A stretch of DNA of 64,000 bases from an uncultured Gemmatimonadales bacterium (GCA_963809895.1 CAWELD010000003.1:3104001-3168000); one strand, 5' to 3'. Counted from the first letter of the stretch, positions 16,546-46,392 are shown. Translations and numbers: made by a program. Notes: a model not told the origin generated them from the letters alone.

Positions 16546-16719
16546 CATGGTCATCGCAGCCGTCGAGGGCCGGGCCGCCGGGGGATGGCTGCGAAGACCA
16601 GGATTGTCATGGTCTTCGCCGCCCGGGACCCCCGCGGCGCCCTCGGCGGCTGCAAACGCCAGGATAGTCATGGTCTTTGCAGCCGCCCCCATGGCCGGGC
16701 ACCGTCCCCGGCGGCAAAC
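16546..16719 (+). repeat. Palindromic 37-bp repeat mini-array, copy A
   Basis: Half unit 16546-16561; full units 16587-16623 and 16648-16684; half unit 16710-16719; linkers 25/24/25 nt. Confidence 0.9.
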
Positions 16720-16853
16720 CCCGCGCTCGGCGCGAGCCCTGTCCCGGCGGTTCGCGGTTCGCGGTTCGCGTGGGAGCCAGCCGCCCTCGCTTCAGGCGTC
16801 GCCTGATTGGTGGCGCCTCCTCACCTCGGAGGTCGGGCCGGCCGCCGTACCGC

Positions 16854-16885
16854 TGTCGATTCCAGCCCCGCCCGTTCGTAGCAGG
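16854..16885 (+). promoter_or_regulatory. Putative ECF42 promoter
   Basis: TGTCGA-N17-CGTAG; near-identical to 19469-19500. Confidence 0.6.
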
Positions 16886-16981
16886 AGTGGGAGGAGCATT
16901 CCTCTCGCCCGTGGCTCTTGACATCCCGCTCGCTGGAGAGCCTCTCTGTACCACCGCGGAGAGAGCCCTCTCGGCGAGCCA

Positions 16982-19438
16982 TTGAACCCTCCGATCCGGA
17001 CGACCCTCCCCATGCGGTACGCCCTCCGCTCGCTGCTGAAAGCGCCTGTCTTTTCCTTCCTGGTCATCCTCACGGTCTCGCTGGGGATCGGCGCCACCAC
17101 CGCGGTCTTCTGTGTCTTCCGTGGCGTGCTGCTACGACCACTTCCTCACGAGGGCGGCGACCGCATCGTCTACCTGAAACAGTCGGCGGCGAAGGCGGGG
17201 ACCGACGACGTGAAGTTCTCCGTCCCGGAGATCATCGACTTTCGCGAAGGGGTCGACGCGTTGGACGGGGTCGCCGAGTTCTCCGCCATGCCGTTCACCA
17301 TGCTCGGCGCCGGCACGCCGACCGAGGTGCGCACAGGCATCGTCAGCGCCAACTACTTCGAGGTGATGGGGCTGAGCCCGGTATTGGGCCGCGTCCTGGG
17401 GCCGGGAGACGCCGGCCCCACCGCCGATCCGGTCATGATCCTCACCTGGGAATATTGGCGTCGCGCCTTCGGCGAGGACCCGTCGGTGCTGGGCCGCACC
17501 GTGGAGATGAACGGCCGCTCGGCGACCATCGTCGGGGTGCTCGAGCCCGCGCCCCCGTTTCCAGGCGAGACGGACGTGTTCGTGAACATCGTGACGAGCC
17601 CCCACCACATGAGCGCGGAGATGGTGCACGGCCGTTCGCACCGCATGGACGACGCGTTCGCGCGTCTGGCGCCCGGCGCTACCATCGACGCGGCGCGCCG
17701 GGAGCTGGCACAGGTCACGAACCGGATGTACGCCGACTATCCGGAGAACTACGATCCGGCAGCGGGCTACGAGACGACGGTCGTGCCGCTACGAGAGGCG
17801 CTGGTGGCCAGAGCCCGCACGACGCTCTATCTGCTCATGGCCGCCGCGGGCCTCCTCCTCGTGGTGACCTGTGCGAACGCGGCGAACCTGGTGCTCACGC
17901 GCAATCTCCGCCGGGACCGGGAGTTCGCCGTGCGTTGGGCCCTGGGCGCCGGCCGGGCGGGACTGCGCCGCATCCTCCTGACGGAGTGCGGAATCCTGGC
18001 CGGCGTGGGCGCGCTGCTGGGGCTGGGTTTCGCGTACCTGGGCCTGGGCCTGCTGGTGCACTTCGCCGAGCGCTTCACGACCCGCGCCAGCGAGATCCAC
18101 ATGGATCCGGCGGTCCTGGCCTTCACGACGGCGGTGGCTTGCCTGGCAGCCGTGGCGTTCGCTTTCGCGCCGGGACTGCGCGATCAGGAGGGTACGGGCG
18201 CGGCCCTCACGCGCTCGGGCGCGCGCACGACCCGGAGCGGACGACGGCTGCAGCGAGGGCTCATCGTCGCCCAGGTGGGGGGTAGCGTCACCGTGCTGAC
18301 GGCAGCCGGCCTGCTGGGTCGCACGCTGCTGGCGCTCAACGCCGTGGACCCCGGGGTGCGGGTGGAGAACACGCTCACCCTGGAAGCTCCGGTCACGATG
18401 GAGGGTCGGATGCCCGACGAGGTCGTCGCCCTCCAGGAGGAGATGGCGCGTCGGATCGGGTCCCTCCCGGGCGTCGAGGACGTGGGCGTGGGGCTGAGCG
18501 TCCCGCTGCGCGGCAGCCTGGTCAAACTGGAGATCAAGGCGGAAGCGCGTCCGCTGGCCCCGGGCGAGCCGATCCCCCTCGCCGAGTACCGGACGGCGAC
18601 GCCGGAGTTCTTCGACGCGGCCGGGATGCGGATCCTCGCGGGCCGGGGGTTCGCCGCGACGGACGAGGCAGGCAGCGCCCGGGTGGCCGTCGTAAACCAG
18701 GCGCTGGCCGAGCGGCTCTTCGGCGATGAGGACCCCCTGGGCAGGCGGGTCACGTGGACGGGTCAGGTGCTGTCCGCCATCGGCATGAAGGAGGACTGGC
18801 GTACCATCGTGGGCGTGGTGAGCAACACGCGTGACGACGGCCCGGATCAGCCCCCGCCGCCGACGCTCTATCAGCCCCTCACGCAGAACGACCTGGCCTA
18901 CTATCCGGGCGCCTTCGTCATCCGCGGCGCGCAGGCGTCCGCGCTGGCCCCGCAGGTGCAGCGGATCATCAACGAGATGGCGCCGGAGCAACCGGTGCTC
19001 CGGGTCGCCACGCTGGAGCAGATCCGCCAGGAGAAGATCGCCGCCGAGCGGCTCAACACGTTCCTGGTGGGGACGCTGGGGATGCTGGCCCTCGTCATCG
19101 CGGCGGTGGGGCTCGCCGGCGTGCTCTCCTTCCTGGTGAGCGAGCGTACCGCGGAGATCGGCATCCGCATGAGCCTTGGTGCGGACGCACGCACGGTTCT
19201 GCGGATGGTTCTGGGAGACGGAGTGCGCCTTCTGGCAGCCGGCAGCGTGCTTGGCTTGCTGGGTTCGCTGGCAGTGGCGCGACTCCTCCAGGGACTGCTC
19301 TACGGGACCCAGGCCACCGACCCCCGCACCCTGGCGGTCGTGCTCCTTGTGATGACCACCGTCGGCCTGGGGGCGACGGCGGGTCCCGCCATGCGAGCCG
19401 CCAGGGTTGATCCCCTGGAGGCGATCCGCAAGGAGTGA
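16982..19438 (+). CDS. ADOP-family duplicated ABC permease (MacB-PCD/FtsX x2)
   Basis: RYALRSLLKAPVFS..LGIGATTAVF; CANAANL; ERTAEIGIRMSLGA; RAARVDPLEAIRKE. Confidence 0.93.
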   Translation: MNPPIRTTLPMRYALRSLLKAPVFSFLVILTVSLGIGATTAVFCVFRGVLLRPLPHEGGDRIVYLKQSAAKAGTDDVKFSVPEIIDFREGVDALDGVAEFSAMPFTMLGAGTPTEVRTGIVSANYFEVMGLSPVLGRVLGPGDAGPTADPVMILTWEYWRRAFGEDPSVLGRTVEMNGRSATIVGVLEPAPPFPGETDVFVNIVTSPHHMSAEMVHGRSHRMDDAFARLAPGATIDAARRELAQVTNRMYADYPENYDPAAGYETTVVPLREALVARARTTLYLLMAAAGLLLVVTCANAANLVLTRNLRRDREFAVRWALGAGRAGLRRILLTECGILAGVGALLGLGFAYLGLGLLVHFAERFTTRASEIHMDPAVLAFTTAVACLAAVAFAFAPGLRDQEGTGAALTRSGARTTRSGRRLQRGLIVAQVGGSVTVLTAAGLLGRTLLALNAVDPGVRVENTLTLEAPVTMEGRMPDEVVALQEEMARRIGSLPGVEDVGVGLSVPLRGSLVKLEIKAEARPLAPGEPIPLAEYRTATPEFFDAAGMRILAGRGFAATDEAGSARVAVVNQALAERLFGDEDPLGRRVTWTGQVLSAIGMKEDWRTIVGVVSNTRDDGPDQPPPPTLYQPLTQNDLAYYPGAFVIRGAQASALAPQVQRIINEMAPEQPVLRVATLEQIRQEKIAAERLNTFLVGTLGMLALVIAAVGLAGVLSFLVSERTAEIGIRMSLGADARTVLRMVLGDGVRLLAAGSVLGLLGSLAVARLLQGLLYGTQATDPRTLAVVLLVMTTVGLGATAGPAMRAARVDPLEAIRKE

Positions 19439-19468
19439 CATCCGGAACGCGCTCGCCGGCCGTGCCTT

Positions 19469-19500
19469 TGTCGAATCCGGCGTCGCCCGTTCGTAGCAGG
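19469..19500 (+). promoter_or_regulatory. Putative ECF42 promoter of the yciI-sigma-yciI operon
   Basis: TGTCGA-N17-CGTAG about 50 nt upstream of the DGPF gene; TGTCGA is the -35 element described for ECF42. Confidence 0.7.
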
Positions 19501-19552
19501 GGTGAACGGCTGCCCATCCGGCGGCCACCCACGCGAGAGGAGATATTCCGAG

Positions 19553-19882
19553 ATGCACTACCTGGTTTCCGTGATCGATGACGGTACCGGCGCCGCCACT
19601 TCCGCCGAGATGGAGGCCATCGACGTATTCAACGAGCGGCTCCAGGCCGACGGTCACTGGGTCTACGCCAACGGCCTCGCAGCGCCCGACGCCGCCACCG
19701 TCGTCGATGGTCGCGGTGAGGAGCCCATCTTCACCGACGGTCCGTTCGTGGAAACCAAGGAGTACCTCGCCGGCTTCTGGATCCTCGAGGCGCCCGATCT
19801 CGATGCGGCGCTCGAGCTCGCCGCCGAGGGTTCGAAGGCCTGCAATCGCAGGGTCGAGGTCCGGCCAGTCCTGAGCGAGTAG
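19553..19882 (+). CDS. YciI/DGPF family protein
   Basis: TDGPFVETKEYLAGFW...VEVRP. Confidence 0.92.
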   Translation: MHYLVSVIDDGTGAATSAEMEAIDVFNERLQADGHWVYANGLAAPDAATVVDGRGEEPIFTDGPFVETKEYLAGFWILEAPDLDAALELAAEGSKACNRRVEVRPVLSE

Positions 19883-19884
19883 GC

Positions 19885-21153
19885 GTGCCTGACGTCGGCG
19901 AGGCGGTCACGCGGGCGCACCGGGACGAGTGGGCGCGGGTGGTCGCCGCGGTGGCCCGGCGCTTCGGCGATCTCGACATCGCAGAGGATGCCGCGGCCGA
20001 AGCGTTCGCAACCGCCGTGGAACGGTGGCGGGCCGACGGCGTCCCCCCCAATCCCGGTGCATGGCTCACCACCACCGCCATCCGCAAGGCCATCGACTGG
20101 GTCCGGCGTGAGAGCAAGCGCGACGACAGGCAGAAGACGGCCCACATGCTGTATGCACCGGACGCACCCGTGCCGGCGCCGCGCGAGGTGATCGAAGACG
20201 AGCGACTGCGTCTGATCTTCACCTGCTGTCACCCGGCGCTGGCCATGGAGGCGCGGGTGGCGTTGACGCTGCGCCTGGTGGGCGGTCTCACCGTTCCCGA
20301 GATCGCCCGGGCCTTTCTGGTACGCGAGACCACCATGGGGCAACGGATCACACGGGCCAAGGCCAAGATCAGGGCGGCTCGGATCCCCTTCCGGACGCCA
20401 CCCGCGAAGGATCTGCCGGCGCGTGTCTCCGGCGTGCTCGCCGTGCTCTTCCTGGTGTTCAACGAGGGATACCTGGCGAGCGGCGCCGACACGGATCCGA
20501 TCCGCGAGGACCTTACCGGCGAGGCGATCCGGCTCACCCGACTGATCCGCTTGCTCCTGCCCGACGACGGCGAAGTGGCCGGCCTGCTGGCGCTGATGCT
20601 CCTTACCGAGGCTCGGCGCGCCACCCGGGTGTCGCCAGAGGGCGAACTGGTCACCCTCGCCGAGCAGGATCGCAGCCGGTGGGACGCGTCGCTGATCGCC
20701 GAGGGTCACGCGCTGGTGCGCGAGCGACTGGCCAAGGGCGTCGCGCCAGGTCGATATCAGATTCTCGCGGCGATCAACGCCGTGCACACCGACGCCCAGC
20801 ACGTCCGCGACACCGACTGGCAGCAGGTCGTCGCGCTCTACGACCAACTGGTCGCGCTGGATCCGTCGCCGATCGTCGCCCTCAACCGGGCGGTGGCGGT
20901 CGCGGAGGTGGACGGCCCGGGCGCGGGACTCGCTGCGGTCGAGCCACTCGGAGATGCCCTGGCCGATTATCACGCCTACCACGCCACCCGGGCCGATCTG
21001 CTGCGCCGGCTGGGACGCACTCAGGCGTCGCGGGCCGCGTACGACAGGGCCATCGAGCTGACCGCCAACCGCGCCGAGGTTGCGTACCTCATACGACAGC
21101 GCGATCGGCTCGAGCGGGTCGAGCACGCATCTCACACGAAACGAGGAGACTGA
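19885..21153 (+). CDS. ECF42-type sigma factor with C-terminal TPR (DUF6596)
   Basis: AEDAAAEAF, LRLIFTCCHPAL, LVFNEGY, EQDRSRWD, ALNRAVA; flanked by DGPF genes. Confidence 0.93.
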   Translation: MPDVGEAVTRAHRDEWARVVAAVARRFGDLDIAEDAAAEAFATAVERWRADGVPPNPGAWLTTTAIRKAIDWVRRESKRDDRQKTAHMLYAPDAPVPAPREVIEDERLRLIFTCCHPALAMEARVALTLRLVGGLTVPEIARAFLVRETTMGQRITRAKAKIRAARIPFRTPPAKDLPARVSGVLAVLFLVFNEGYLASGADTDPIREDLTGEAIRLTRLIRLLLPDDGEVAGLLALMLLTEARRATRVSPEGELVTLAEQDRSRWDASLIAEGHALVRERLAKGVAPGRYQILAAINAVHTDAQHVRDTDWQQVVALYDQLVALDPSPIVALNRAVAVAEVDGPGAGLAAVEPLGDALADYHAYHATRADLLRRLGRTQASRAAYDRAIELTANRAEVAYLIRQRDRLERVEHASHTKRGD

Positions 21154-21156
21154 ATC

Positions 21157-21525
21157 ATGCCAAGGTATCTGGTAGCGGCGTACCTCCCCGACGACTACGA
21201 CCGGTCGGGCGAGAGCGAGGGGACGGCGGCGGCGATCCACGCGCTCAATGCCGACATGGAAGCGGCCGGCGCGCTGAAGTTCGCGTGTGGCGTGTCACCG
21301 GCCAGCGCCGCCAAGACGCTGAGAAAGGAGCCCGACGGCGAGGTGCTCGTCACCGACGGACCCTACATCGAGACGAAGGAACACATCGCTGGCTTCCTGC
21401 TGCTGGAGGCGGCGGACATGGACGAGGTGCTCGCGTGGGCACGGAAGGGTGCCGGGGTCCTGGCGGGACCGGTCGAGGTGCGGGAGCTCTACTTCCAGCC
21501 GGACCCGGGAGAAGCGACGGGGTGA
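21157..21525 (+). CDS. YciI/DGPF family protein
   Basis: VTDGPYIETKEHIAGF...VEVREL. Confidence 0.9.
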   Translation: MPRYLVAAYLPDDYDRSGESEGTAAAIHALNADMEAAGALKFACGVSPASAAKTLRKEPDGEVLVTDGPYIETKEHIAGFLLLEAADMDEVLAWARKGAGVLAGPVEVRELYFQPDPGEATG

Positions 21526-21596
21526 CGCCCGTCGGAGGCCTCCCGGGCCGGAGGCCTTCGCAGGACTCGCCGATCGCTGGCGCCCCGGGGTGGAGG

Positions 21597-21669
21597 CCCG
21601 GACATCCGGATCCTGGAGATCGCCGCGCGGCATCACCACAGCGGTGTGCGACTCTCGGGACCAGAACGC
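21597..21669 (+). pseudogene. Internally deleted remnant of the AbiEi-DUF559 gene (5' end joined to 3' end)
   Basis: 21597-21632 matches 26352-26387 at 35/36 nt; 21637-21669 matches 27209-27241 at 26/33 nt (manual alignment). Confidence 0.8.
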
Positions 21670-21805
21670 ACAGGTGCCGGGTTCCGCCGGACCCGAGACC
21701 GCCGGACCCGACGCCCGTGCGCGCGGGACACGGGAGACGCGCGGAACCCGTGAAACGCGCGAGGCTTCCCGGTCGAAGGCACGGGGGCAGAGGCCGCGGC
21801 GCGCG

Positions 21806-22053
21806 CATGATCGTCACCGCCGCGGGGGGCATGATCTTGGCGGCTGTGGACGACCATGGTCATGGCACTGCCAGGCGGACATGGTCTTTGCAGCCATCAA
21901 CCGTGAGGCCACCACCGGTCGGCTGCGAACGCCAGGATTATCATGGTGTCCGCCGCCCGGAACCTCTGCCACTCCCCCCGTGGCTGCGAACGCCAGGATA
22001 GTCATGGTCTCTGCAGCCATCCCCCCGGCCTTCCAGCGTCGCTGGCTGCGAAC
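21806..22053 (+). repeat. Palindromic 37-bp repeat mini-array, copy B, with upstream half-repeats
   Basis: Half units start at 21806, 21830, 21855 and 21880; full units 21921-21957 and 21982-22018; half unit 22044-22053. Confidence 0.9.
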
Positions 22054-22205
22054 CCCGCGCCGCGCGCGCCCGGCTACCGTCTGACACCCCGTCGTCCGCC
22101 ATCCCGGAGCCGACAGTGTCGGCGAGAGTGGCAGGGGTGTCCTGCGTTGCTTGGTGCCGGCGCATGAAGCTCTCCAGGCAGGTGCTCACGGAACCTGTCC
22201 GTCCG

Positions 22206-23702
22206 CTACACGCGCTCCGCCCAGGCCACGATGCCGCGGATCATGCCCTTGAAGATGAGGGCGTGGAGGGGATAGACGGCGTACCAGTACAGCAGCCCGG
22301 GAAGGCCGACGGGGTCGAAGATGGCGGTCTGACGTATGTTCGACCCTTCGGCGGTCGCGTTGACCTCGAACTGAAGCCAGGCGCGACCGGGTAGCTTCAT
22401 TTCGGCGTGCAGGCGGAGCAGTCGATCCTCCTCGACGGCCTCGACCCGCCAGAAGTCGACGGCGTCTCCGGGGCGGAGCCGGTCGGGATCGCGGCGGCCA
22501 CGGCGTGAGCCGACACCACCCACGAGGAGATCGAGGAAGCCCCGCAGCCGCCACAGCCAGTCGGCGTAGTAGTAGCCGTGGTCGCCGCCGATTCGCCGCA
22601 CGGCTGCGAACGCGCGGGCTGGGGGAACGGGCACCGACGCCGTGCGCGAGTCGACTCTCCGTAGCCCGAACGCGGCACCGCCGTACGGATGATCCGGTGG
22701 GGTCGACGGGAAGGCGTCGTTCCAGCGCGTCTCCGCAAGCTCGCGGTCCTCGTTGGCCAGGGCGCGGGCGATGGCCTCCGCGACCGGGCGCGGTGCGATC
22801 CCGGGAAAGAGCCGGCCCGCCGCGTCCGAGTCCACCACGGTCTCGTTGCGCAGGCTGTCGATGAGCTTGCGCCCGACCCGGGCGTAGAGCGGGGTCACCA
22901 GACCGAGCCAGAGGCTGGAGAGCCAGGGAGTCAGGACCGGAACGGGGATCATGAAACGGCGCAGGCCCCGCTGACGCGCGTACTCGAGCATGAGCTCGCG
23001 ATACGACAGCCGGTCCGGCCCCCCGACCTCCACCACGCGGCCACCGTCGGGGAGGGGGACCTCCAGCGCCGCGACCAGATAGGCGAGCACGTCTTCGATG
23101 GCGATGGGCTGCGCCCGCGTCGCGACCCAACGCGGCGTGATCATGATCGGGAGCTTCTCCACCAGCGACCGGAGCATCTCGAAGGACAGGCTCCCCGAGC
23201 CGAGGATGATGGACGCTCGAAACTCGAGGGTCGGGATGCCCGACGCCCGCAGGATCCTTCCCACCTCCTGACGGCTCTCCAGGTGCGACGACAGGCCGTC
23301 GCCCTCCCCCAGCCCGCCCAGGTAGACGATCCTGCGCACCCCTGCCGAGAGGGCCGCCGCCGCGAACCCCTCCGCCGCCCGGCGATCCCGCTCCCGGAAG
23401 TCGTCACCGGCGTTCATCGAGTGGATGAGGTAGTAGGCCGCGTCGACGTCCCGGAGCGGCTCGGCCAGCGAGCGCGGATCCAGCGCGTCACCCGCTGTGA
23501 CCTCGACACCGGCGGGCACCCGCGCCTGGAGGAACTGGGGGCGCCGAGAGATGCAGCGCACCGTGTGGCCTGCGTCCAGAAGCGGCCGCAGAAGCCGCCC
23601 GCCGACGTAGCCGCTGCCCCCCGTCACGAGAACCCGTAGGCGGCCGTCAGCGGGTGCCCGGTCCGGGAGGCGCTCCGGGGCCTCCATCGTGTCAGAGCTC
23701 AT
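22206..23702 (-). CDS. SDR-like NAD(P)-binding protein with DUF2867
   Basis: VLVTGGSGYVGGRL, AYYLIHSM, SSHLESRQEVG, GDAVDFWRVE, AEMKLPGRAWL. Confidence 0.92.
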   Translation of the reverse strand: MSSDTMEAPERLPDRAPADGRLRVLVTGGSGYVGGRLLRPLLDAGHTVRCISRRPQFLQARVPAGVEVTAGDALDPRSLAEPLRDVDAAYYLIHSMNAGDDFRERDRRAAEGFAAAALSAGVRRIVYLGGLGEGDGLSSHLESRQEVGRILRASGIPTLEFRASIILGSGSLSFEMLRSLVEKLPIMITPRWVATRAQPIAIEDVLAYLVAALEVPLPDGGRVVEVGGPDRLSYRELMLEYARQRGLRRFMIPVPVLTPWLSSLWLGLVTPLYARVGRKLIDSLRNETVVDSDAAGRLFPGIAPRPVAEAIARALANEDRELAETRWNDAFPSTPPDHPYGGAAFGLRRVDSRTASVPVPPARAFAAVRRIGGDHGYYYADWLWRLRGFLDLLVGGVGSRRGRRDPDRLRPGDAVDFWRVEAVEEDRLLRLHAEMKLPGRAWLQFEVNATAEGSNIRQTAIFDPVGLPGLLYWYAVYPLHALIFKGMIRGIVAWAERV

Positions 23703-24580
23703 CCCTTCCAGCCGGGCCGTCGCAACACCAACACCGGCGTCCGGTCCCGATATTCTCGATATTCCGGGTCGTCTCCCCACTTCATCCGGGCTCGTTCTTC
23801 CAGAGGGGGGATGCCGCTGATGCGGGTCAGCAGGAGAAGGACGAAGACCGGCGACACGAGCGTCACGTATCGCCAGCCTTCGAGCTCAGGAAGGGCGATC
23901 AGCGCCACACCGAACCAGAGCACGATTTCTCCGAAGTAGTTGGGGTGGCGTGACCACGCCCACAGGCCGCTCTGAATGAAACGCCCTCTGTTTTCCGGCT
24001 CTTCGCGGAATCGTCTCTTCTGGCGGTCGGCAACGACCTCGATGGAAAAGCCGATGGCCCAGATCAGGATACCGAACGCCGCAGCGACTCCCAGAGGCTG
24101 CGCGCCCTCGCCCGTAATGGCGGCCAGCGCGCACGCCAGGGTCAGGAAGACCCACAATCCCTGAAGGGTCCATGCCGCGAGGAAACGCGAAAAGCTGGAC
24201 CGCATTTCGTCGAAGCGAGCATCCTTCCCCTCACGGTTGATGCGCGCGAACAAGAAGGCACCGAGCCGAACCGCCCAGACCAGCACGAGCGCGCCCAGAA
24301 GGAGCGATCGGGCATCTTCCGCGTCTGACGCCACGAGCGCAGACACGATGACGGCCACGTACGTGAGGCTTCCGGTGAGGTCGAAGAAGCGCTCGGTGCG
24401 GGCTCGATACGACGGCACGAACACGATCCAGTTGATCGTGAACGCGAGCACCCCGCAGACGGTGAAGACCGGCAGTCGGCCCACCCTGACGCCCCCCTGG
24501 CTTCCCGCCCACGCGACCGCCGCCCCCACGGCCAAGACGACGGGGATGACGGCCAAAGCTCGTTGTTCGGGCCGATTCAT
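23699..24580 (-). CDS. DUF1295 (steroid 5-alpha reductase-like) membrane protein
   Basis: FFDLTGSLTY, DARFD, ADRQK, GLWAWSRHPNYFGE, SGIPPLE. Confidence 0.92.
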   Translation of the reverse strand: MNRPEQRALAVIPVVLAVGAAVAWAGSQGGVRVGRLPVFTVCGVLAFTINWIVFVPSYRARTERFFDLTGSLTYVAVIVSALVASDAEDARSLLLGALVLVWAVRLGAFLFARINREGKDARFDEMRSSFSRFLAAWTLQGLWVFLTLACALAAITGEGAQPLGVAAAFGILIWAIGFSIEVVADRQKRRFREEPENRGRFIQSGLWAWSRHPNYFGEIVLWFGVALIALPELEGWRYVTLVSPVFVLLLLTRISGIPPLEERARMKWGDDPEYREYRDRTPVLVLRRPGWKG

Positions 24581-25080
24581 GGTGCAGGCCTCACGTCCTG
24601 GACAGCGATAGGGTGCATCCACGAAGGGAGCGCAGCCGTTCTCCAGCGGACGCCGGGGACTTCGCCCGGTGCGCGGCCGCAGCCGTGCGCAACCCACAAT
24701 GGCGCAGCCGCGCGCCGGCACGCCACCGCTCCGGCCCTGGGGACCACGGCCATGGTCGCCGGCCCTCGCCGCGGTTAGACTCCGTTACGCCCTCGTCGGC
24801 GACCCGCTGGTTCCCCGCCCCGGAGAACGACGTGCCGAACGCCTTCACGATCTCCCGCTCCCACCTCTTCTCCACCTCGGACGTCGACCTCCGAAACGAG
24901 ATCACCGGCCACACGGGGAGCGAGACGGAGACCTCGAGCATTCTTCGGTCCATCGACCGCTTCGGTAGCGACACGTCGATCACCGGCTACCAGGTCCACC
25001 CCAGTCCGGCGCGAGCCACGCGTGTGGTTCCGGCCCGCGTCGCCTGGACGGTGCACGCACTGAGGGTATGAAGCGCGCGA

Positions 25081-25263
25081 TCAGCGCTCCGGGCGGCGGC
25101 GGATCCGGTTCTTCACCGAGTCGAAGCGGACGCCACGCATCCGCTTGACGCCGCTGCTCGTATCCTTGTAGACCCTTTTTCGGGTCGGGGGGCTTCCGTC
25201 CTCGTCGGACCAGAAGTAGGGGCTCGGTACGCCGTTCTTTCGGTCGATCTTCTTCCTGGCCAT
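25081..25263 (-). CDS. Small basic hypothetical protein (60 aa)
   Basis: MARKKIDRKNGVPSPYFWSD...; GGAG RBS; GC3-biased codons. Confidence 0.55.
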   Translation of the reverse strand: MARKKIDRKNGVPSPYFWSDEDGSPPTRKRVYKDTSSGVKRMRGVRFDSVKNRIRRRPER

Positions 25264-25325
25264 GGCTCGGCTCCGCTGTGCGGTGAGAAGGCTCCGTCGA
25301 TCGGTCGACCGGCGAAGATGGAGCA

Positions 25326-25655
25326 CTACCCTGCTTCGTCCGCGTCCGGATCGAGGTGGCCGTCCGTGGTGGACCTGCGCAGCTTCGCCACCTTGAGAGC
25401 CCAGTCGAGCTCACTTTCCGGACGATGATCCGGCATCCGGCCATCGGTCACGGCCCGGAGGAGATCCTCGGTCCTGTGGCGAAGCCCCTGATGATCCACG
25501 TGGGCGTGGCAGGCGTTCAGCAGATGGATGAGGCGGGCGATTTCGGCCTGATCGAGCCTGTGCGCCAGCGCCAGCGGCTCGATCCCGAGCTCTTCCGCTG
25601 CCGTCTGGATCGCCAGGACGGCGAACTGAGCGAGTTGGCCGTCGAGATCGTTCAT
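25326..25655 (-). CDS. Hypothetical protein
   Basis: ORF coupled (ATGA overlap) to the upstream gene. Confidence 0.6.
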   Translation of the reverse strand: MNDLDGQLAQFAVLAIQTAAEELGIEPLALAHRLDQAEIARLIHLLNACHAHVDHQGLRHRTEDLLRAVTDGRMPDHRPESELDWALKVAKLRRSTTDGHLDPDADEAG

Positions 25656-25951
25656 GGCACGTCCCACATCACAGGGGAAATCGGGCTGCTCCCGAGGGGG
25701 GATACCCGGATGTTGGCCGCAGATGCGAAGAACGGTGCCTTGCGCCCGTCGTCCATCGACAGCTCGAGCAGGCGCCCGCCCGAGCCCGTCCGGCCGAGGT
25801 GGCGCACCACCACGGCCGTCCCTTCGTGGGTCAGGACCCGCTCACCCGGCGAAGGCAGCCTGTCGGCGCCGCTCACCGATCCCGGGCAGCGCGCCGGGTC
25901 GACGCGCAGGGCGTTGATACCGCGGGGCCGCTCGATCATCGCGTCCTGCAT
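25652..25951 (-). CDS. Hypothetical protein
   Basis: MQDAMIERPRG...; GGAG RBS. Confidence 0.6.
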   Translation of the reverse strand: MQDAMIERPRGINALRVDPARCPGSVSGADRLPSPGERVLTHEGTAVVVRHLGRTGSGGRLLELSMDDGRKAPFFASAANIRVSPLGSSPISPVMWDVP

Positions 25952-26000
25952 CTCCAACTCTCCCGGGCCCGGGGGCCTCGTGTGCGGGCCAGGGAGAAAC

Positions 26001-26072
26001 AAAAAAAAACCCGGGCATCAGCGCCCAGGTTCGTTTCCTTTCTGGCATCCGGACCTTGCCGGATCGATTGCC
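26001..26072 (-). ncRNA. Candidate about 70-nt sRNA or attenuator leader ending in an intrinsic terminator
   Basis: Hairpin 26072-26044, then stem AACCUGGGC/GCCCGGGUU plus U-tract (26031-26001); upstream TTGACG-N17-GAGCTT (26108-26080). Confidence 0.45.
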
Positions 26073-26337
26073 GCTCTTGAAGCTCGCGGGACCCTCGGGG
26101 AGCGTCAAGGCACGGTCACGCCCGCATCGTCTCGAGGAAGACGCCCGTTCGGGCAGCCGTGCCGAGGACGGCCGCGGCGGTGGCTCTGCGAGCGACTCCG
26201 CCGGCCGATACCCGAAGGGGGCAGCGCCGCTGCCGAGCCGGCGCGTCCGAGTCGCCGCGGCCACGCTGCGGGCTCGGGCGGTTCCCCATGTCGCATCCCG
26301 CCATGGCTTCGCCCTGGAGAGCCGATGATTCTCCGGT

Positions 26338-27252
26338 GTGAGTGCCATCCACCCGGACGTCCGGATCCTGGAGATCGCCGCGCGGCAGCATGGCGTGGTC
26401 GCCCGCAAGCAGCTGCGTGAGGCGGGGCTGTCGCGAGGTGCCGTAGAGTATCGGCTCCGGAAGGGGGTCCTTCGAGCCCTGCACCGAGGTGTCTACCGCA
26501 CCGGACCGACGACGCCGCAGTACCAGGCGGAAGCCGCCGCGCTGCTGGCGTGTGGCGAAGATGCCGTGCTCACCCACAGGACGGCAGCCGGCATCCTGGG
26601 CATCATTCCCGAGCCCCGGCCCGAGCAGCCCATCGATGTCTCCGGCCCCCGCAGCCTGCGCGGTCCGCGCTCCGGTGTCCGGCTCCACCGCGTCGGACGG
26701 CTGCCCGACGACGAGGTCGAGCGCCGGCACGGGCTGGTCGTCGCCGCTGGGCCGCGGACGATCCTGGACCTCGCCTCCTGTCTCGGGCCCTACGACCTCG
26801 AGCGCGCCCTGGCGCGGGCCGAGCGGCGGGATCTGGTCACCCTCGATCGGGTCCGGGCCATCGCCGACCGGCATCCCCGCCGACCAGGCCGCGGAAGGCT
26901 ACAGGCCCTCCTCGACGACATCGCGGAACCGGCGCTCACCCGCTCGCCACCGGAGCGCCTGCTCCTGAAGAGGCTGCGCAGGGCGGGCGTCCCGCGGCCC
27001 AGGGCCAACGCCAGGATCCACGGCATGGAGGTGGATCTGCTGTTTCCGGACTACCGGCTGGCCGTGGAGATCGACGGCTACGCTTTCCACCGCCAGCGGC
27101 CGGCCTTCGAAGACGATCGCGGCCGCGGCGCCGCTCTCGCAGCCCGGGGGATCATGGTCCTGCGCTTCACCCCACGACAGCTCAAGACGGAACCCGACAA
27201 GGTGCTCGCACAGCTGTGTCTGGCTCTCGGTGCCAGGACGCCGACGCGCTGA
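26338..27252 (+). CDS. AbiEi_4-like wHTH plus DUF559 (Vsr-like PD-(D/E)xK) nuclease
   Basis: AARQHGVVARKQL..LHRGVY; THRTAA; RTILDLA; TRSPPER; EVDLLF...LAVEIDGYAFH...DRGR...VLRFT. Confidence 0.9.
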   Translation: MSAIHPDVRILEIAARQHGVVARKQLREAGLSRGAVEYRLRKGVLRALHRGVYRTGPTTPQYQAEAAALLACGEDAVLTHRTAAGILGIIPEPRPEQPIDVSGPRSLRGPRSGVRLHRVGRLPDDEVERRHGLVVAAGPRTILDLASCLGPYDLERALARAERRDLVTLDRVRAIADRHPRRPGRGRLQALLDDIAEPALTRSPPERLLLKRLRRAGVPRPRANARIHGMEVDLLFPDYRLAVEIDGYAFHRQRPAFEDDRGRGAALAARGIMVLRFTPRQLKTEPDKVLAQLCLALGARTPTR

Positions 27253-27380
27253 AGTCCCGCCTGCCAGGGACCGTGGCGCGCGGGGCCCGTGAGACGCAGA
27301 GATCCGACCGACGCGAGGGGCAGGTGAGACACGAGTCGCTTCTCGGTCGGCCGGGATAAGGACTGCGGCCGAAGTGCGAA

Positions 27381-27518
27381 CATGGCCGTCACAGCCGCCA
27401 GGCGGACGTGGTCTTCGCAGCCTTCAACACTCGGACCACTACCCGAGGGCTGCGAACGCCAGGATTATCATGGTGTCCGCCGCCCGAGACCTCCAGCGCT
27501 CCCCCCGCGGCTGCGAAC
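27381..27518 (+). repeat. Palindromic repeat mini-array, copy C, truncated
   Basis: Half units at 27381 and 27407; full unit 27448-27484; next unit stops after GGCTGCGAAC (27509-27518). Confidence 0.9.
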
Positions 27519-27595
27519 AACAATGTAATATATTTTGGACATCTAGTCGTAAATATCTTACTATTCGTTTGGACCAACCTCAACTGGAGAACGCC

Positions 27596-28153
27596 ATGAG
27601 CAGCATCCTCTGGTCGGTGGGAGCGCTGGTGGCGGGCAGCCTGATACTCTGGATCGTCGCCCGCTCCGTGATGTCCCGCGTTCCCGACTTCTCCGACGGC
27701 GGGAAGCCGCCGTCTACGCACCTTCAACGGGCGGCCCGCTGGAGCCTGTTTCTGGCGGGGACACCGGTCCTTGCCGTCGCGCTCATGCTCGCCGTGTTCG
27801 GTCTGGAGCGAGCAACAGAAGACGCAGGCCTTCGCTTCACACTGTACGGGCTCATCCTGGTGTCCCTCCTTGCCGCCGGCGGCGGAGCGTGGTGGGTCGC
27901 AAGACGCGGCCGGGCGCCTGCGGGCGGTATCGTACTGGATGAACGGGACCGCGCGATCCTCGAGCGCGCCCCGGCCGTGCAGTCGGTTACCACTATCCTC
28001 GTGCTGGCTGCTTGGACGGTCCTTCTCACCGAGCACTTTTCGGCCACCGGAGCGGTACCCCTGGTCTGGCTCCAGCTCGTCTTCTGGTCGTGTGTGACGG
28101 TGAACGCGCTCGGGCTGCCAGCGGGGGTGCTCATGGGGTACCGGAAGGGGTGA
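27596..28153 (+). CDS. Multi-pass membrane protein (DUF2178-like DERD motif)
   Basis: About 5 TM segments; VLDERDRAI motif; paired with XRE HTH. Confidence 0.75.
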   Translation: MSSILWSVGALVAGSLILWIVARSVMSRVPDFSDGGKPPSTHLQRAARWSLFLAGTPVLAVALMLAVFGLERATEDAGLRFTLYGLILVSLLAAGGGAWWVARRGRAPAGGIVLDERDRAILERAPAVQSVTTILVLAAWTVLLTEHFSATGAVPLVWLQLVFWSCVTVNALGLPAGVLMGYRKG

Positions 28154-28154
28154 G

Positions 28155-28379
28155 ATGGACACCGATCAGCTCAGAAACGACATCCGTCGACATCGCTTCG
28201 AGCGCAACGAGATGACGCAGCAGGAGCTGGCCGATGCCGCCGGTTGTTCACGGCAAACCATCGTGATGCTGGAAAAGGAGCGCTACAGTCCCTCGCTCGG
28301 ATTGGCCATGAAGATCGCCCGCGTCTTCGATGTGAGGGTGGACGATCTCTTCTGGCTCGACGGGGACGAAGACACATGA
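28155..28379 (+). CDS. XRE-family HTH regulator
   Basis: MTQQELADAAGCSRQTIVMLEKERYSPSLGLAMKIARVF. Confidence 0.93.
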   Translation: MDTDQLRNDIRRHRFERNEMTQQELADAAGCSRQTIVMLEKERYSPSLGLAMKIARVFDVRVDDLFWLDGDEDT

Positions 28380-28401
28380 TCAACCATGGCCGGAAGGCGG
28401 A

Positions 28402-28602
28402 CCTGGCCGTCACAGCCGCCAGTGCGAACATGGTCTTCGCAGCCGCCAACCGTCGGGCCACCACCCGATGGCGGCGAATCCCAGGATTATCATGGTGTCC
28501 GCCGCCCGCGACTCCCGCCGCACCCTCCGCGGCTGCAAACGACAGGATAGTCATGGCCTTCGCAGCCTTCGCCCTTCCCCACTTCCATCTCTGGCTGCGA
28601 AC
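28402..28602 (+). repeat. Palindromic repeat mini-array, copy D
   Basis: Half units at 28402 and 28429; full units 28470-28506 and 28531-28567; half unit 28593-28602. Confidence 0.9.
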
Positions 28603-28686
28603 CCCACGCCGGGCACGACCATATTGTGGAACCGGGACGACCTGAAGTCCTGGCACGATCGGGGTCGGGTCTCTCATTCTTCTCGG

Positions 28687-32241: not shown

Positions 32242-32630
32242 CCGATGTGGACCGCAGGAGGTCCAGGCTGTGCGGATCCCGCACCTGCCCCCCACACAGC
32301 ATGCAGCACTGCTTCGTGGAGCTCCGGGAGGACGTGGACCCACCCGTCCTGTTACGCGCGCCCCAAAGCCCACGCCACATGCTCCCGCACCAGAGACTCC
32401 GGATCCTCCAGCGCCTCCCGCAACACCTCCACCGCCTCCTCCGGCGGCTCGTCCACCGAAGCCAGCCAGTTCCCCATGGCCACCGCGACGTTGCGCTTGA
32501 ACCCGGCGTAGCCCGCCCGCCGAATCGCCGAGCCACGCGAGAACGCGTCCCAGTCCTCGCGGGTCATCCGCATCAGCTCCACCAGCGACGGCGCATAAGT
32601 CCCCGGATGCGGGGGATTACCGACACCCGA

Positions 32631-32707
32631 CGTTTCAACTGAAAGATTCTCTTCGGTCAGCCCGGGATCGGCCCGGCCTCTACCATCGCGCGTTTCAGCT
32701 GAAACGC
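32631..32707. promoter_or_regulatory. Two parS-like palindromes 60 bp apart
   Basis: GCGTTTCAGCTGAAACGC (32690-32707, perfect) and CGTTTCAACTGAAAG (32631-32645). Confidence 0.4.
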
Positions 32708-32803
32708 TCCTCCGCCGGGAACCCCTCCACCCAGAAGGGCAGCTCCCCCGCCCCCCGCGCCGCATACCCCGGCTCCGCGCTCACCTCCGCGAAGCGCACG
32801 TTG

Positions 32804-32821
32804 AACGGACACACCTCCTGG
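32804..32821 (+). repeat. att core, left copy (AACGGACACACCTCCTGG)
   Basis: Identical to 41997-42014; flanking bases differ on both sides. Confidence 0.92.
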
Positions 32822-32904
32822 GAGGATTGCCCACTTCCGCGTTACGGGATTTCGCTGAGTACGGGCGATTCAAACAGGGATCGGGCGAATGCTGATCCTG
32901 ACGC

Positions 32905-39652: not shown

Positions 39653-41709
39653 ATGAGCAAGAAGAACGTCATCATCGTCGAGGAAAGGAAGCCCGACCTG
39701 CACGGGGATTCGGTCTTCGAGGTAGAGCTGGAGCCTGGCGTCGAGGCCTCCCCGATTCGCTGGAGCGGTCAGAGCGAGCCGAGGCTCTGGTCCCTCACGC
39801 TGACGCATGTCAGCGGTCTGCAGGTGGTGGTGAGGGAGCGGGTTCGCGGCACTATCGAACTCGAATCGGAGTTCATCGACAGACGCGGAGGTGTTCTCAC
39901 GGTCAAGCCCCTGGTGGGGTTCTTCCCGATCGGATTCGTGTCACACGGAAGAGCTCGCGCGAGGATGAGAAACAGAAGTTCTCGCATGATCAGCAGAACG
40001 ACGACATGACAGCCGAATGGGGGGCGATCGACCCGGTCTGGTGGTGGAAGGAGAGCCGGAGCGGAACCAGCTTCGATCGTCCCTCCTTCCAGGACGTGCT
40101 CGACTTCTGTCGGTCCAATCCTCGCCCTGTCGGGGAGCCCGGCAGAGTGGAATGGTGGGCACCCCACCGGTTCGGGCGTAGCCTGGACGTGAACGGCCAG
40201 CCGGACATCATGAAGTTCATGGCCATGTACAACGAGTTCCAGAACCCGGAGTGGCACCTCCACTTCCTCAAGGTCCCCGGGTGAACCATCCCCTGGGGGA
40301 CGTGTTGAACATCGCTGTCTATGCCTACGCCGCGGCGGTGTACTCCAAGGACCTCTCGGAAAACGCCACCCGCGGTCGGCGTAGCGAGGGCGAGAAGGGT
40401 TGGTGGGTGAACGGCCAGGCTCCGTGGGGGACGAAACGCAAGGACACCCTTGAGGACCGAATTCTCGAGCCTGGCGAGAAGTCGAAGCCGGGTGGCGGGG
40501 GGACGATCCTGGTTGAGGACCCGGACATCCTACCGCATTGGAGGCCGTCCGCGGAGTCGTTCCTGGCGGGCGCCTCGTACAAAGGCATCGGCGAGGACCT
40601 CTACGACGTCGGCTTGCGCGGTCCTCAGGGCGGCGCCTTGGGACACCGACACATCCGGAACTTCCTCACGAACCGGCACCTGATCGGCGAGGTGAAGGTC
40701 CGAGACGCGGATGGCAACGTACAGTGGCCCCCGCCAAGTGGGATGCGCTGGTCGATCGCGCACTGTTCGAGAAGGTCGTGCAGGAGGCGGAGCGGCGGAA
40801 GTCACAGCCCCGGGACAAGAAGCGCACGTCGAAGGGGACCTTCCTCCTGCGGCCCGCATGCGCCCACTGCGGGATCGAGTACCACGGCGGACGTAACGGA
40901 AAGAAGCAGGGGAGTGCATGCACATACGTCCACCCGAAACCCCACAAGGTCCATCACCCCGAGATCTACGACGCCTATGTGGAGCACGAGTGCCGCGGGT
41001 GGACTGTACTCGCGGACGAGCTCGAAGGGGCGGTCAAGGACCTCATTCTCCGTGAGCGGACGTCTGTAGGCTACGAAGAGGAGATCCGGGCGCTGATCCT
41101 GGAGAAGGAGCAGTTCGAGCAGGGCGCCGCCGCCGCGGTGAAGGCGGCTGAGCAGAAGGTTGAAGACCTGGAGACCCAGCATCGGAGCCAAAGCCGGAGG
41201 TTGGCTCGTCTTCAGGAGAGGGAGATCGATGAGGACGCGCCCCTCGACGAACTGCGAGGCGACCCAGCAGAAGCTCAACGCCGCCCGATCAGAGGTCGAG
41301 AAGGCGCACGAGTTCCGACGCTCCCGAAGAGGTGGCCTGGGACCGCCTATCGAAGGTCATCGACGAGACGCGCAACCTTGCCGAGACGTGGGACAAGGTC
41401 GGGCTCGATGAGCGTAGGCTCCTACTCGACTGGTGGGTCCTGGACGTCCAGATCGTCGTGGAGCCGATCGAAGGGATGAAGAAGGCCAACGAAAAGACGG
41501 CCATCGTGACGCTCCGAAGTGACCCGAACGCCTCCCGCTACTTCGGGCTCGGTAACCGCCTCTCCAAGGCCGACTCGAGTTCGCCCCGGACGAACGCGTC
41601 GTCTTCTGATTCCGACGCCGCCGACAGCACGTCGGCGGCGTCTGCCGAGTCGATGCACCGCAAGCGCCCCGGCGGCGTGCCCGCGAACCAATGGATCAGG
41701 GTCTTGTAG
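39653..41709 (+). CDS. Large serine recombinase; several indels; 3' end uncertain
   Basis: Reconstructed VYTRKSS catalytic motif, SGTSFDRPSF, HRFGRS, LSENATRG..G.W.NGQAPWG, WDALVDRALFEKV, CAHCG zinc ribbon, coiled coil. Confidence 0.9.
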
Positions 41710-42895
41710 CGCCGACGCCAGCACGGGAACCGCCGCGTCCAAGCCCCAGTTGCCGAGTGCCACGCAGACGTTGCGGGCGAACCCGGAGCGTCCTGCACGT
41801 CGGATGGCGGAGCCGCGGGAGAACGATCCCCAGGAGGACTCGTCGAGAGCGGTCGTCAGCAGGTCGATCAGCGACGGCGAGGAGGTGCCGGGGTACCAGA
41901 CGTCCGACGGGAGCGGGCTCCACGCCGAACGGTGGTTGTCCTGGCGATCGGGCAGAGTATGCGGGCTCGGAGGAGGGGGTTGAGAACTTACGGGTAAACG
42001 GACACACCTCCTGGCAGATGTCGCAGCCGAACACCCGGTTCCCCATGAGGGGGCGGAGCTCTTCGGGAATCGCGCCACGGTGCTCGATGGTCAGGTAGGA
42101 GATGCACCGGGTTGCGTCCATGACCGGCGCGCCGTCCTCGTCGCGTCCCAGGAGCGCGCCCGTGGGGCAGGCGTCGAGGCACGCCCGGCACGAGCCGCAG
42201 TGGTCCGCCTCGAAGGGCTCGTCGGGGGGCAACTCCACATCCAGCAGCAGCACGCCCAGGAAGAACCACGAGCCTCGCCGGGGATGGATGAGCATGGTGT
42301 TCCGGCCGAACCAGCCGAGGCCGGCGCGCTGTGCCAAGTCCCGCTCGAGAATCGGGCCGGTGTCGACGTAGGCGCGGCCCGCGACTGCGGCGGGCGCCTC
42401 GGCGCCCTCTCTCCGCGCACCACCACCCGCGCCATCCGCGCCGCCGCCCGGCGGCCCGCCGACCCGCTCGTCTCCACCAGCACGCGCCCCCACTTCTCCC
42501 TCCAGCCACCGCAGCAATCCGAACAGCTTCTTCTTCACCACCTTGTGGTAGTCCCGTCCGCGCGCGTAGCGGGCGATGACGCCCACCCCGGGATCCCCCG
42601 GGACTCCGGGTGCGTCCTCCTGGAAGTACTCGTGGGCCACCACCAGCACCGAACGGACGTCCTCGAAGGTGCCGCGCAGATCCTCGCGGCGAGCCACCGC
42701 CTCGGGGCGGGCGAGGTAGTCCATGTCGCCGTGGCGACCCTCGGCCAGCCAGCGGCGGAAGAACGCCCCGTGCCTCGACGCGTCCGGCCGCGCGATGCCG
42801 GCAAGCGAGAACCCGCGCCGCCGGGCCTCCTCCTTCAGGTCGTCCGCGAGCCTTCGCGCCAGCACCCGCCGCCGCGCCGCACCTTCGTCCGTCAC
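41538..42895 (-). CDS. queG: Epoxyqueuosine reductase; hybrid of host 5' part and island-supplied 3' end; two indels in the 3' part
   Basis: ARYARGRDYH, YVDTGPILERDLAQRAGLGWFGRN, CGSCRACLDACP, CISYLTIE, GCDICQEVCP, ARNVCVALGNW. Confidence 0.95.
41997..42014 (+). repeat. att core, right copy
   Basis: Identical to 32804-32821; encodes QEVCP of QueG on the minus strand. Confidence 0.92.
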
Positions 42896-43992
42896 GCCGC
42901 CCGACCCCTCCGGTTGCGGGCCACCACGTCGAGAATGCGCTCGTGCTGCGCGAAGATCACGAGCTCGTCGCCCGCCGCCACGCGCTCGTCGGGCTCGGGG
43001 TCCACGGTGACGCTGCCGTGCCGGCACACCAGGACGATTTCCATGGTGTTGTCACGCTCCAGGTCGCCCACCGCTGCCCCAGCCAGGAACGAGCGCTCCC
43101 CGACCGTGAGCCGGATGGTCGAGTACTCCTCGCCGCCGATCTCCAGCGTCTGGGTGATCTCGATACCCAGCGCGGCCCCGGCGAAGGCGGGGGCCGACAG
43201 GTCGGCGGCGCTCATGACCGTGTCCACCATGCCGAAGCGCTGCATCTGATCGCCGATGGCCCGGTCCCACACCCGGGCCACCACCCGCACCTGACCGTTC
43301 AGCTCCCGCACCTTCATGACGGTCTCGAGGTTCACGCGGTCGTCGCCGGTGCACGCCACGAACACCTCCGCATGGGGCAGACCGGCGCGCTCGAGCGTGA
43401 TCGCCCGGCGGCCATCCCCCATAACCACGGGCACGTTCAAGCTCTCCAGCACCTCCTGCACTTCTTCGTTGGGACTGTGGTCCACCACCACCACCGGCAG
43501 TCCCATGTCCCGCAGGTCCCTCACCACACGCAGGCCCACGTGCCCGGCGCCGAAGACGATGGCGTGATTGCGATAGGTCATGGCCAGGGCCTCCCCCCAG
43601 CGGTCGCGGTTGTCGTCGCGGTTGAAGAACAGATCGAGAAAGTCCGCCGCGCCCAGGCCCACCAGCACGATGAACGTCACGGGCATGAGGTACCAGAACA
43701 GCGCCAGGTACCACGCCGACGGCACGTCTTCCGGGGCCTCCAGCAGCATGAGCTGCACGATGACGTAGGGGCGGTCGAACAGCGGGATCGCGGCGCCGCC
43801 GGCCAACCGGTGCAGCTCGCCGTAGACCAACCCCCCGATCGCCGTCACGAGCACGAATCCCCAGATCGAGACCCGGAACTCGCGCAGCAGCGCCAGGAAG
43901 TGGTAGCGCACCGCACTCACCCGTTGCACCGCACGGCGCAGGGCGGACACGCGCCGGGGCGCAGCCAGGCGACTGCCGACGACGCTGGACAC
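42892..43992 (-). CDS. TrkA-family (RCK N/C) potassium channel-like protein
   Basis: N-terminal TMs; HAIVFGAGHVG; CTGDDRVNL; TrkA_C tail; GTGA overlap with queG. Confidence 0.85.
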   Translation of the reverse strand: MSSVVGSRLAAPRRVSALRRAVQRVSAVRYHFLALLREFRVSIWGFVLVTAIGGLVYGELHRLAGGAAIPLFDRPYVIVQLMLLEAPEDVPSAWYLALFWYLMPVTFIVLVGLGAADFLDLFFNRDDNRDRWGEALAMTYRNHAIVFGAGHVGLRVVRDLRDMGLPVVVVDHSPNEEVQEVLESLNVPVVMGDGRRAITLERAGLPHAEVFVACTGDDRVNLETVMKVRELNGQVRVVARVWDRAIGDQMQRFGMVDTVMSAADLSAPAFAGAALGIEITQTLEIGGEEYSTIRLTVGERSFLAGAAVGDLERDNTMEIVLVCRHGSVTVDPEPDERVAAGDELVIFAQHERILDVVARNRRGRAA

Positions 43993-46382: not shown

Positions 46383-46392
46383 GGACGGCGCC

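Follow-up and report, generated by a model that had tools for sequence, protein, structure and literature searches.

The window analysed here is a stretch of 64,000 nucleotides from an uncultured Gemmatimonadales bacterium (GCA_963809895.1, CAWELD010000003.1:3104001-3168000). It contains four arrays of a 37-bp palindromic repeat, named A to D, and a putative nuclease gene that lies directly before array C (Table 1). The arrays had been reported on the plus strand in a first-pass annotation, and all four were found there. A scoring matrix was trained solely on 11 arrays outside the window and then applied to it. The seven window palindromes scored between 40.5 and 59.0 bits, compared with -4.1 for the next site and 7.0 for the best of 200 shuffles. 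The cognate AbiEi_4-DUF559 gene was overlooked in that annotation, within the very region it described.

The complete element runs over approx. 176 bp as half-site, linker, palindrome, 24 nt, palindrome, linker and half-site. Its unit had been described as a 14-bp stem with a 9-nt loop but is an odd palindrome (18+1+18) that is symmetrical through its centre, with positions 16 and 17 paired in 53 and 54 of 60 units, respectively. Aligned units start with GGC and end with GCC, their flanks are variable, and no GTAG or CGTC tag is present. The outer half-sites are inverted and the element is symmetrical. The arrays are polar: central linkers are 50% alike in one orientation and 28% in the other. 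Each linker is homologous to those at its position in the other arrays, in line with the resemblance noted at first. The invariant 25/24/25-nt linkers that had been claimed hold for the window, where outer linkers measure 25 nt, but not in general. Over 30 arrays, linker 1 has 24 nt in 15 and 25 nt in 14, linker 3 has 25 nt in 14, 24 nt in 13 and 23 nt in two, and each was not found in one array. The central period is nearly fixed. All arrays found in other genomes have 61, as do 13 of 14 complete arrays of the own genome, the exception being C10:325032 with 62. The array at the mraZ locus carries a third palindrome. The earlier starts given for B, C and D belong to extra degenerate 27-nt leader units (repeat family D2) that precede these arrays. 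Array C stops early, as had been noticed; it breaks about 10 nt inside its second palindrome (27509-27518).

Table 1. Features of the window, with positions counted from its first nucleotide.
Feature	Position	Strand	Description
Array A	half-site 16548-16561; palindromes 16587-16623 and 16648-16684; terminal half-site 16710-16723	+	half-site, 25 nt, 37-bp palindrome, 24 nt, 37-bp palindrome, 25 nt, half-site; copy without gene, BlaI-like gene on one side and ABC permease gene on the other
Array B	half-site 21882-21895; palindromes 21921-21957 and 21982-22018; terminal half-site 22044-22057	+	complete
Array C	leader units and array 27367-27522; half-site 27409-27422; palindrome 27448-27484	+	directly 3' of the putative nuclease gene
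Array D	28388-28606, leader units included; half-site 28431-28444; palindromes 28470-28506 and 28531-28567; terminal half-site 28593-28606	+	complete
Putative nuclease gene	26338-27252	+	304 aa; matches to AbiEi_4 (E 4e-9), MTES_1575 and DUF559
Middle domain of its protein	26512-26931		residues 59-198
Conserved upstream segment	26290-26337	+	CCATG motif about 35 nt before the start codon
Gene remnant	21597-21841	+	internally deleted gene remnant and trailer, preceding array B
Cargo	27596-28379	+	predicted membrane protein (no Pfam/NCBIfam match) and HTH_3 gene
51-nt repeat (family D13)	16839-16889; 19454-19504		80% alike; upstream of two operons
queG and duplicated 3' piece	32390-32850; 41696-43027	-	about 9.3 kb apart
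Split reading frames	44600-49700		thiamine-pyrophosphate enzyme, enolase-family dehydratase, FAD-linked dehydrogenase

The partner gene and its protein

Array C begins approx. 160 nt past the stop codon of the gene. The same order was found at all eight intact orthologues with at least 77% identity, the own gene included (L001=L009, L002, L003, L007 (own), L008, L087, L088 and L089). An array lies 76-637 nt downstream of each, in several different gene contexts. An array also accompanies a partial duplicate (L004); a frameshifted copy (L005) has none. Scanning the genome and its relatives, as the first-pass annotation had proposed, gave 15 loci in the own genome and matches to a strict 37-mer pattern in eight of 401 genomes of the order. 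In the orthologue search, for which five candidates were scored per genome, six of the 401 had a close orthologue. Five genomes were in both sets and the sixth with the gene (G346) has a degenerate array according to the matrix. All six genomes with a close gene carry the array, and so do three further genomes. In the clade with 57-60% identity, a related, diverged palindrome was found in tandem arrays with a period of 61/62 at three of three loci. A metagenome scan with the close-clade alignment yielded 31 loci, all of them distant (best full-length match 50%), and added no close orthologue. Downstream of the gene at L090, L091 and L119, longer tandem arrays of near-identical 61/62-nt units were observed and not the half/full/full/half order.

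The gene remnant in front of array B links the two components further. Its first part, 21597-21635, matches 26352-26390 of the gene in 37 of 39 nt and is joined directly to 21637-21841, which matches 27209-27418, i.e. the last 44 nt of the gene and the trailer (z 11.4 compared with shuffles). This shows that gene, trailer and array had at one time been copied together, after which about 820 nt were lost internally. Among gene-less arrays with full-length flanks, a gene remnant was found solely at B. Overall, gene and array are almost certainly partners. The segment conserved upstream of the gene probably serves as a leaderless promoter or else marks where the gene-bearing unit starts on the left. 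The protein family is common, with matches in 86 of the 401 genomes and often several per genome.

The protein is predicted to be a full AbiEi antitoxin fold fused to a nuclease of the Vsr/I-Bth0305I type (PD-(D/E)XK fold). In an AlphaFold model built with 120 sequences (pLDDT 88.9), residues 3-196 matched AbiEi (6y8q; Z 12.9, rmsd 4.4, 183 aligned) and Rv2827c (Z 10.1). Residues 201-302 matched 3hrl (Z 14.2), the catalytic domain of I-Bth0305I (3r3p; Z 13.7, rmsd 2.2, 95 aligned) and Vsr (1cw0; Z 11.4). An earlier model from five sequences was poor (pLDDT 54.9) and was not used. In a sequence search of solved structures, 3hrl was the sole match (E 0.033). D144, S203, E206, D233, D246, G247 and D260 are invariant in 120 homologues and H251 is at least 90% conserved. 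Judged by the D-H-D spacing of 18/9, compared with 17/9 in I-Bth0305I (D196/H213/D222), E206, D233, H251 and D260 would be equivalent to the EDxHD catalytic residues. The protein is under purifying selection with dN/dS values of 0.19, 0.21 and 0.16 for its three parts (21 pairs). The middle domain, which contains the invariant D144, also aligned with nucleotidyltransferase folds; the score on MenT1 (8an4, Z 7.9) is below kinship level.

Fixed geometry and variable sequence

The flanks of 121 homologous genes were searched with a sequence-blind detector, which looks for a pair of self-complementary windows that resemble each other at a distance of 40-90 bp. Values above the 97.5th control percentile were obtained for 46 of 114 downstream and 49 of 116 upstream flanks, and a period of 60-63 for 30 and 32 of them, respectively. 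Eight of 300 control windows passed, two of them with a period of 60-63, both being arrays of the same type. Many of the remaining passing flanks were simple tandem repeats. Simple GC-rich tandem repeats with assorted periods were commoner beside homologous genes than in control windows. A stricter filter left 47 loci. Half-site similarity was 0.35 below 45% protein identity, 0.45 at 50-55% and 0.68-0.73 above 65%, with a Mantel rho of 0.49 over the 47 loci, kin being non-independent. Gene and array thus diverge together in sequence, and the 37-bp/61-63-bp geometry is kept. The protein tree was a quick version with many open forks and was used only for the well-supported clade of the window repeat.

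The own genome (G000; 5.33 Mb in 11 contigs, 95% complete) was scanned for paired 37-nt palindromes at periods from 45 to 80. It gave 32 hits, which fell on the periods 61 (17), 62 (5) and 63 (10), compared with three scattered hits in a 36-nt control scan. These 32 hits are made up of two families of 14 and four others. In either large family, one member lies next to a DUF559 gene, of which the genome has five. The second family comprises 18 loci with an unrelated core sequence, a period of 61-63 and inverted outer motifs at the same distance, and it was found in no other of 151 genomes. Its gene-linked copy lies upstream of the C5 paralogue (G000:C5:21345). Two gene-less copies share 230-240 nt with the gene-linked one, beginning near the same CCATG motif that precedes the window gene. 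Another paralogue (G000:C10:855720-856640) is frameshifted, and no array family was detected for it.

Similar sites were found at AbiEi genes that lack the nuclease. In all four inspected, a 37-nt odd palindrome lies upstream (12-13 of 18 pairs), and the confirmed AbiEi_4 and AbiEii operon L030 has two palindromes 63 bp apart. AbiEi is described to bind 23-bp inverted repeats as two monomers and to bend the DNA, and the Rv2827c operator to consist of two pairs of 23-bp repeats with gaps of 13 and 4 bp (PMC7319586). By our own arithmetic from these published figures, its lengths (23+13+23+4) add up to a 63-bp period. The arrays may therefore descend from operators of the AbiEi type.

Probable recognition and spread of the element

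Of 1080 pairs in 60 oriented palindromes, 780 (72%) are Watson-Crick, 73 are G.T, 78 are A.C and 149 are other combinations, with C.C recurring in 26 and G.A in 25 of the 60 units. Covariation was judged by permuting arms among 30 arrays after the truncated array C and one 95%-identical twin had been dropped. Complementarity within palindromes gave z 2.2 for the first and -0.3 for the second. The value over the central linker was -1.2, and direct-repeat pairs reached 2.2 and 2.9. This pattern is in keeping with relatedness or local homogenisation rather than compensation. The compensatory change proposed earlier for unit 16648 did not hold up, as the position is Watson-Crick in 25 of 60 units and 24.2 would be expected if the arms were independent. 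Of the selection on hairpin and spacing that had been suggested, the spacing remains. The three window copies fold into three different shapes. Since the stems show no clear compensation, the palindromes are likely double-stranded protein sites and not RNA hairpins, and we regard recognition as duplex DNA as probable.

The same pair of gene and array could also work on single-stranded hairpins, with the nuclease cutting folded strands during replication or DNA uptake. Two published repeat-enzyme systems, RAYT/REP (PMC3116915) and Ssn (PMC11893778), are described to act so, and Vsr itself reads mismatches (PMC3424549). The share of paired arm positions and the z of 2.2-2.6 for the first palindrome would agree with this, but no wobble bias was found, the second palindrome lacks the signal and the C.C and G.A mismatches recur. 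Moreover, the fold of the DNA-binding part is one that binds operators as double strands, and the near-constant period of 61-63 suits helical phasing better than independent hairpins. Recognition of single strands is thus considered unlikely.

The 15 array loci of the own genome, the four of the window included, lie on both strands and are all intergenic, as for the dispersed, REP/BIME-like repeat in fixed-spacing groups that had been recognised from the window. Eight arrays are in tandem, four in divergent and three in convergent contexts, compared with a background of 55/27/18% from crude gene calls, and four of the eight tandem ones run along and four opposite to the direction of the flanking genes. 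The arrays might be expanded operators of a domesticated regulator or chromosome organiser that serves a host function such as gene control or DNA looping, the nuclease not being the spreader. AbiEi antitoxins are repressors (PMC7319586), dN/dS is 0.16-0.21, each family has a single gene, 26 of the 47 arrays at homologues are confined to the upstream side of the gene and the mraZ array replaces a motif conserved in congeners. However, the array lies downstream of the gene in the window clade, and the contexts given above speak against such a role. The families either have a patchy distribution (6 genes in 401 genomes) or occur in a single genome, and the nuclease residues are invariant. A host function is therefore quite improbable.

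Several observations indicate that the element has spread. The array upstream of mraZ (G000:C3:1536742; L202:2300-2560) is missing in eight of eight aligned congeners, whose gap is 172-276 nt shorter, and the matrix gave no hits in 19 congener mraZ loci. At this site the array replaces CCCAC repeats that are present in the six congeners checked and absent here; they seem to resemble MraZ operator boxes. At the left junction there is a short inverted duplication. At locus C10:535330, synteny of the flanks is not kept in congeners. C10:764768 and C3:1196412 share a 365-nt unit at 95% identity, with unrelated genes around it and no target duplication at its edges, and the shared edges differ from pair to pair of copies. 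Of the 15 copies, four are no farther than 12 kb from the nuclease gene, and genome G058 has three copies inside 13 kb. Two cargo genes are flanked by C (27367-27522) and D (28388-28544), which are direct repeats of each other. Low-depth metagenome contigs gave no clean empty allele or excision joint. The signs of spread fit cut-and-repair copying that prefers nearby sites; the role of the nuclease is not proven, and we think it fairly probable that it drives the spread.

An element resembling a MITE, mobilised by some unrelated transposase while the nuclease gene rides along as a passenger, would account for the symmetrical ~180-bp element with inverted outer half-sites and for near-identical twins at unrelated loci. 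It is very improbable given the varying shared edges, the missing target duplication at the twin, the repeat sequence following the nuclease clade and the family-wide geometry. Processed structured-RNA or guide-RNA arrays, proposed at first, would fit the polarity and folding of the arrays and can hardly be upheld, as the window had no Rfam match at gathering score (array B none at E up to 1), clear covariation and an orientation link to flanking genes were not found, the linkers are homologous by position, array B had no match in phage and plasmid records (blastn) and the window copies fold differently. A tRNA and tmRNA search gave no match.

Based on this evidence, we lean towards the arrays being gene-less copies of an element of approx. 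180 bp that is paired with the AbiEi-Vsr gene, whose protein would bind the palindromes as duplex and cut, after which repair would copy the element; binding, cutting and mobility are what we infer. Each AbiEi moiety would read one 18-bp half-site, as AbiEi antitoxins read operators. Six half-sites, repeated every six helical turns or so, could build one phased bent complex, at which the Vsr-type domain would nick or cut the array. Recombinational repair, and not precise cut-and-paste, would then yield new intergenic copies. Such repair would lead to ragged edges, missing target duplications, local clustering and the capture of cargo between direct copies, as with C and D.

A number of results weigh against this mechanism. 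Three of the nine array-bearing genomes (G029, G170 and G391; assemblies 86-95% complete in 190-650 contigs) show no close gene. Several close loci adjoin queG, with the nuclease gene or array near it in L003, L181, L182 and L184, so that the pairing may partly be shared descent at one locus. Of 99 homologues whose flanks were long at either side, only 39 showed an array with the sequence-blind detector, and three of the five own paralogues lack a large array family. No domain predicts the repeat best (rho 0.36-0.38), and the specificity determinant was therefore not located; kinship alone can yield such a correlation. The first palindrome slightly exceeds permutation in complementarity (p 0.017), and in 21 of 30 arrays the more stable RNA fold is that of the reverse strand. 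Concerning the operators, the palindrome cut-off of 12 of 18 is loose and the palindromes of L029 are 146 and not 62 bp apart. The comparison at the empty mraZ site is between species and does not resolve its edges.

Known systems and other features of the window

The pair of gene and array works like REP/RAYT and Ssn/SRM without belonging to either. Although built from an AbiEi antitoxin and an EDxHD/Vsr nuclease as predicted, it does not qualify as a toxin-antitoxin pair or as a homing endonuclease. With REP/BIME/REPIN-RAYT it shares dispersed intergenic palindromes in fixed-spacing groups, gene-less copies and the presence of several families in one genome, every one of which has a cluster next to the enzyme gene belonging to it, as described in PMC3116915 and PMC3733652. 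In contrast, the enzyme is an AbiEi-Vsr fusion as predicted and RAYT is an HUH tyrosine transposase, and neither the tag nor clear hairpin compensation of REP is seen. In addition, there are 15-18 loci per family with a geometry conserved across families. The absence of cas and RAYT genes, first stated for the window, applies to the whole 95%-complete genome: Y1_Tnp (PF01797, RAYT) gave no match (control positive in 6 of 14) and neither did Cas1 (control positive in 7 of 14). A CRISPR array differs further, as central linkers here are alike between loci and array B lacks a phage or plasmid match. The varying edges and the missing target duplication at the 365-nt twin also set the element apart from an IS-derived MITE.

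In the Ssn system with its SRM/NTS repeats, a non-transposase nuclease gene is likewise tied to a dispersed palindromic repeat of its own that varies from homologue to homologue (Chenal et al. 2025, PMC11893778). According to this source, Ssn is a GIY-YIG single-strand cutter of 94 aa, unlike the 304-aa protein here with its separate DNA-binding module and predicted PD-(D/E)XK fold. DUF559 and Vsr are not mentioned in the main text of that article. AbiEi/Rv2827c antitoxins resemble the protein in the fold over residues 3-196 and in their paired inverted-repeat sites (PMC7319586), and the 63-bp period at Rv2827c, by arithmetic, and at L030 is also similar. Unlike in AbiE type IV systems, a nuclease is fused and the sites lie downstream and are dispersed genome-wide. 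No AbiEii gene is adjacent to the nuclease gene (C3:3.13 Mb); AbiEii matches were found only at C3:1.88 Mb and 3.61 Mb. The EDxHD homing endonuclease I-Bth0305I, described as a dimer cutting a pseudo-palindromic duplex, has a Vsr-like catalytic fold, a separate N-terminal DNA-binding region and symmetric sites as well (PMC3239194). Here, however, an AbiEi_4 module at the N-terminus replaces NUMOD motifs, the gene is free-standing and not in an intron or intein, and the presumed site is carried and multiplied by the element, whereas a homing site is disrupted by the insertion. Further literature for comparison is found in PMC1189080, PMC3710099 and PMC11375011.

A published description of a pairing between AbiEi/DUF559 proteins and repeats was not found in the literature searched, subscription journals and supplements lying outside the search. 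New are the fixed, sequence-independent geometry, the link to AbiEi operators and the deleted-gene derivative. More tentatively, and short of what we would call probable, the system might be a new class of mobile DNA in which the fusion of a toxin-antitoxin repressor and a Vsr-type nuclease made its own operator self-copying, with an own 37-bp site per member, a six-turn phased array, gene-less copies and cargo capture. If so, the class would be a rich natural source of long-site nucleases that share one architecture and cover many specificities. An orphan protein family that is very common gains a predicted DNA substrate, and its function is directly testable because this substrate can be read from the flanking sequence. 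AbiEi-Vsr proteins would be the third enzyme type in partnerships of repeat and enzyme after RAYT and Ssn, and toxin-antitoxin operators are suggested as their origin. Should the proteins indeed cut at the 37-bp sites of their own arrays, they would be a ready set of orthogonal long-site binders and nucleases.

Elsewhere in the window, a full queG and its duplicated 3' piece bracket lower-GC genes for a subtilase, an AAA ATPase and an Mrr nuclease. The region looks like an island integrated in queG; no integrase was identified. Three enzyme genes further downstream appear split over several frames, which reflects frameshifts or assembly errors. The 51-nt repeat upstream of two operons may act as a common promoter for an ECF sigma factor, for instance that at 19885-21153.

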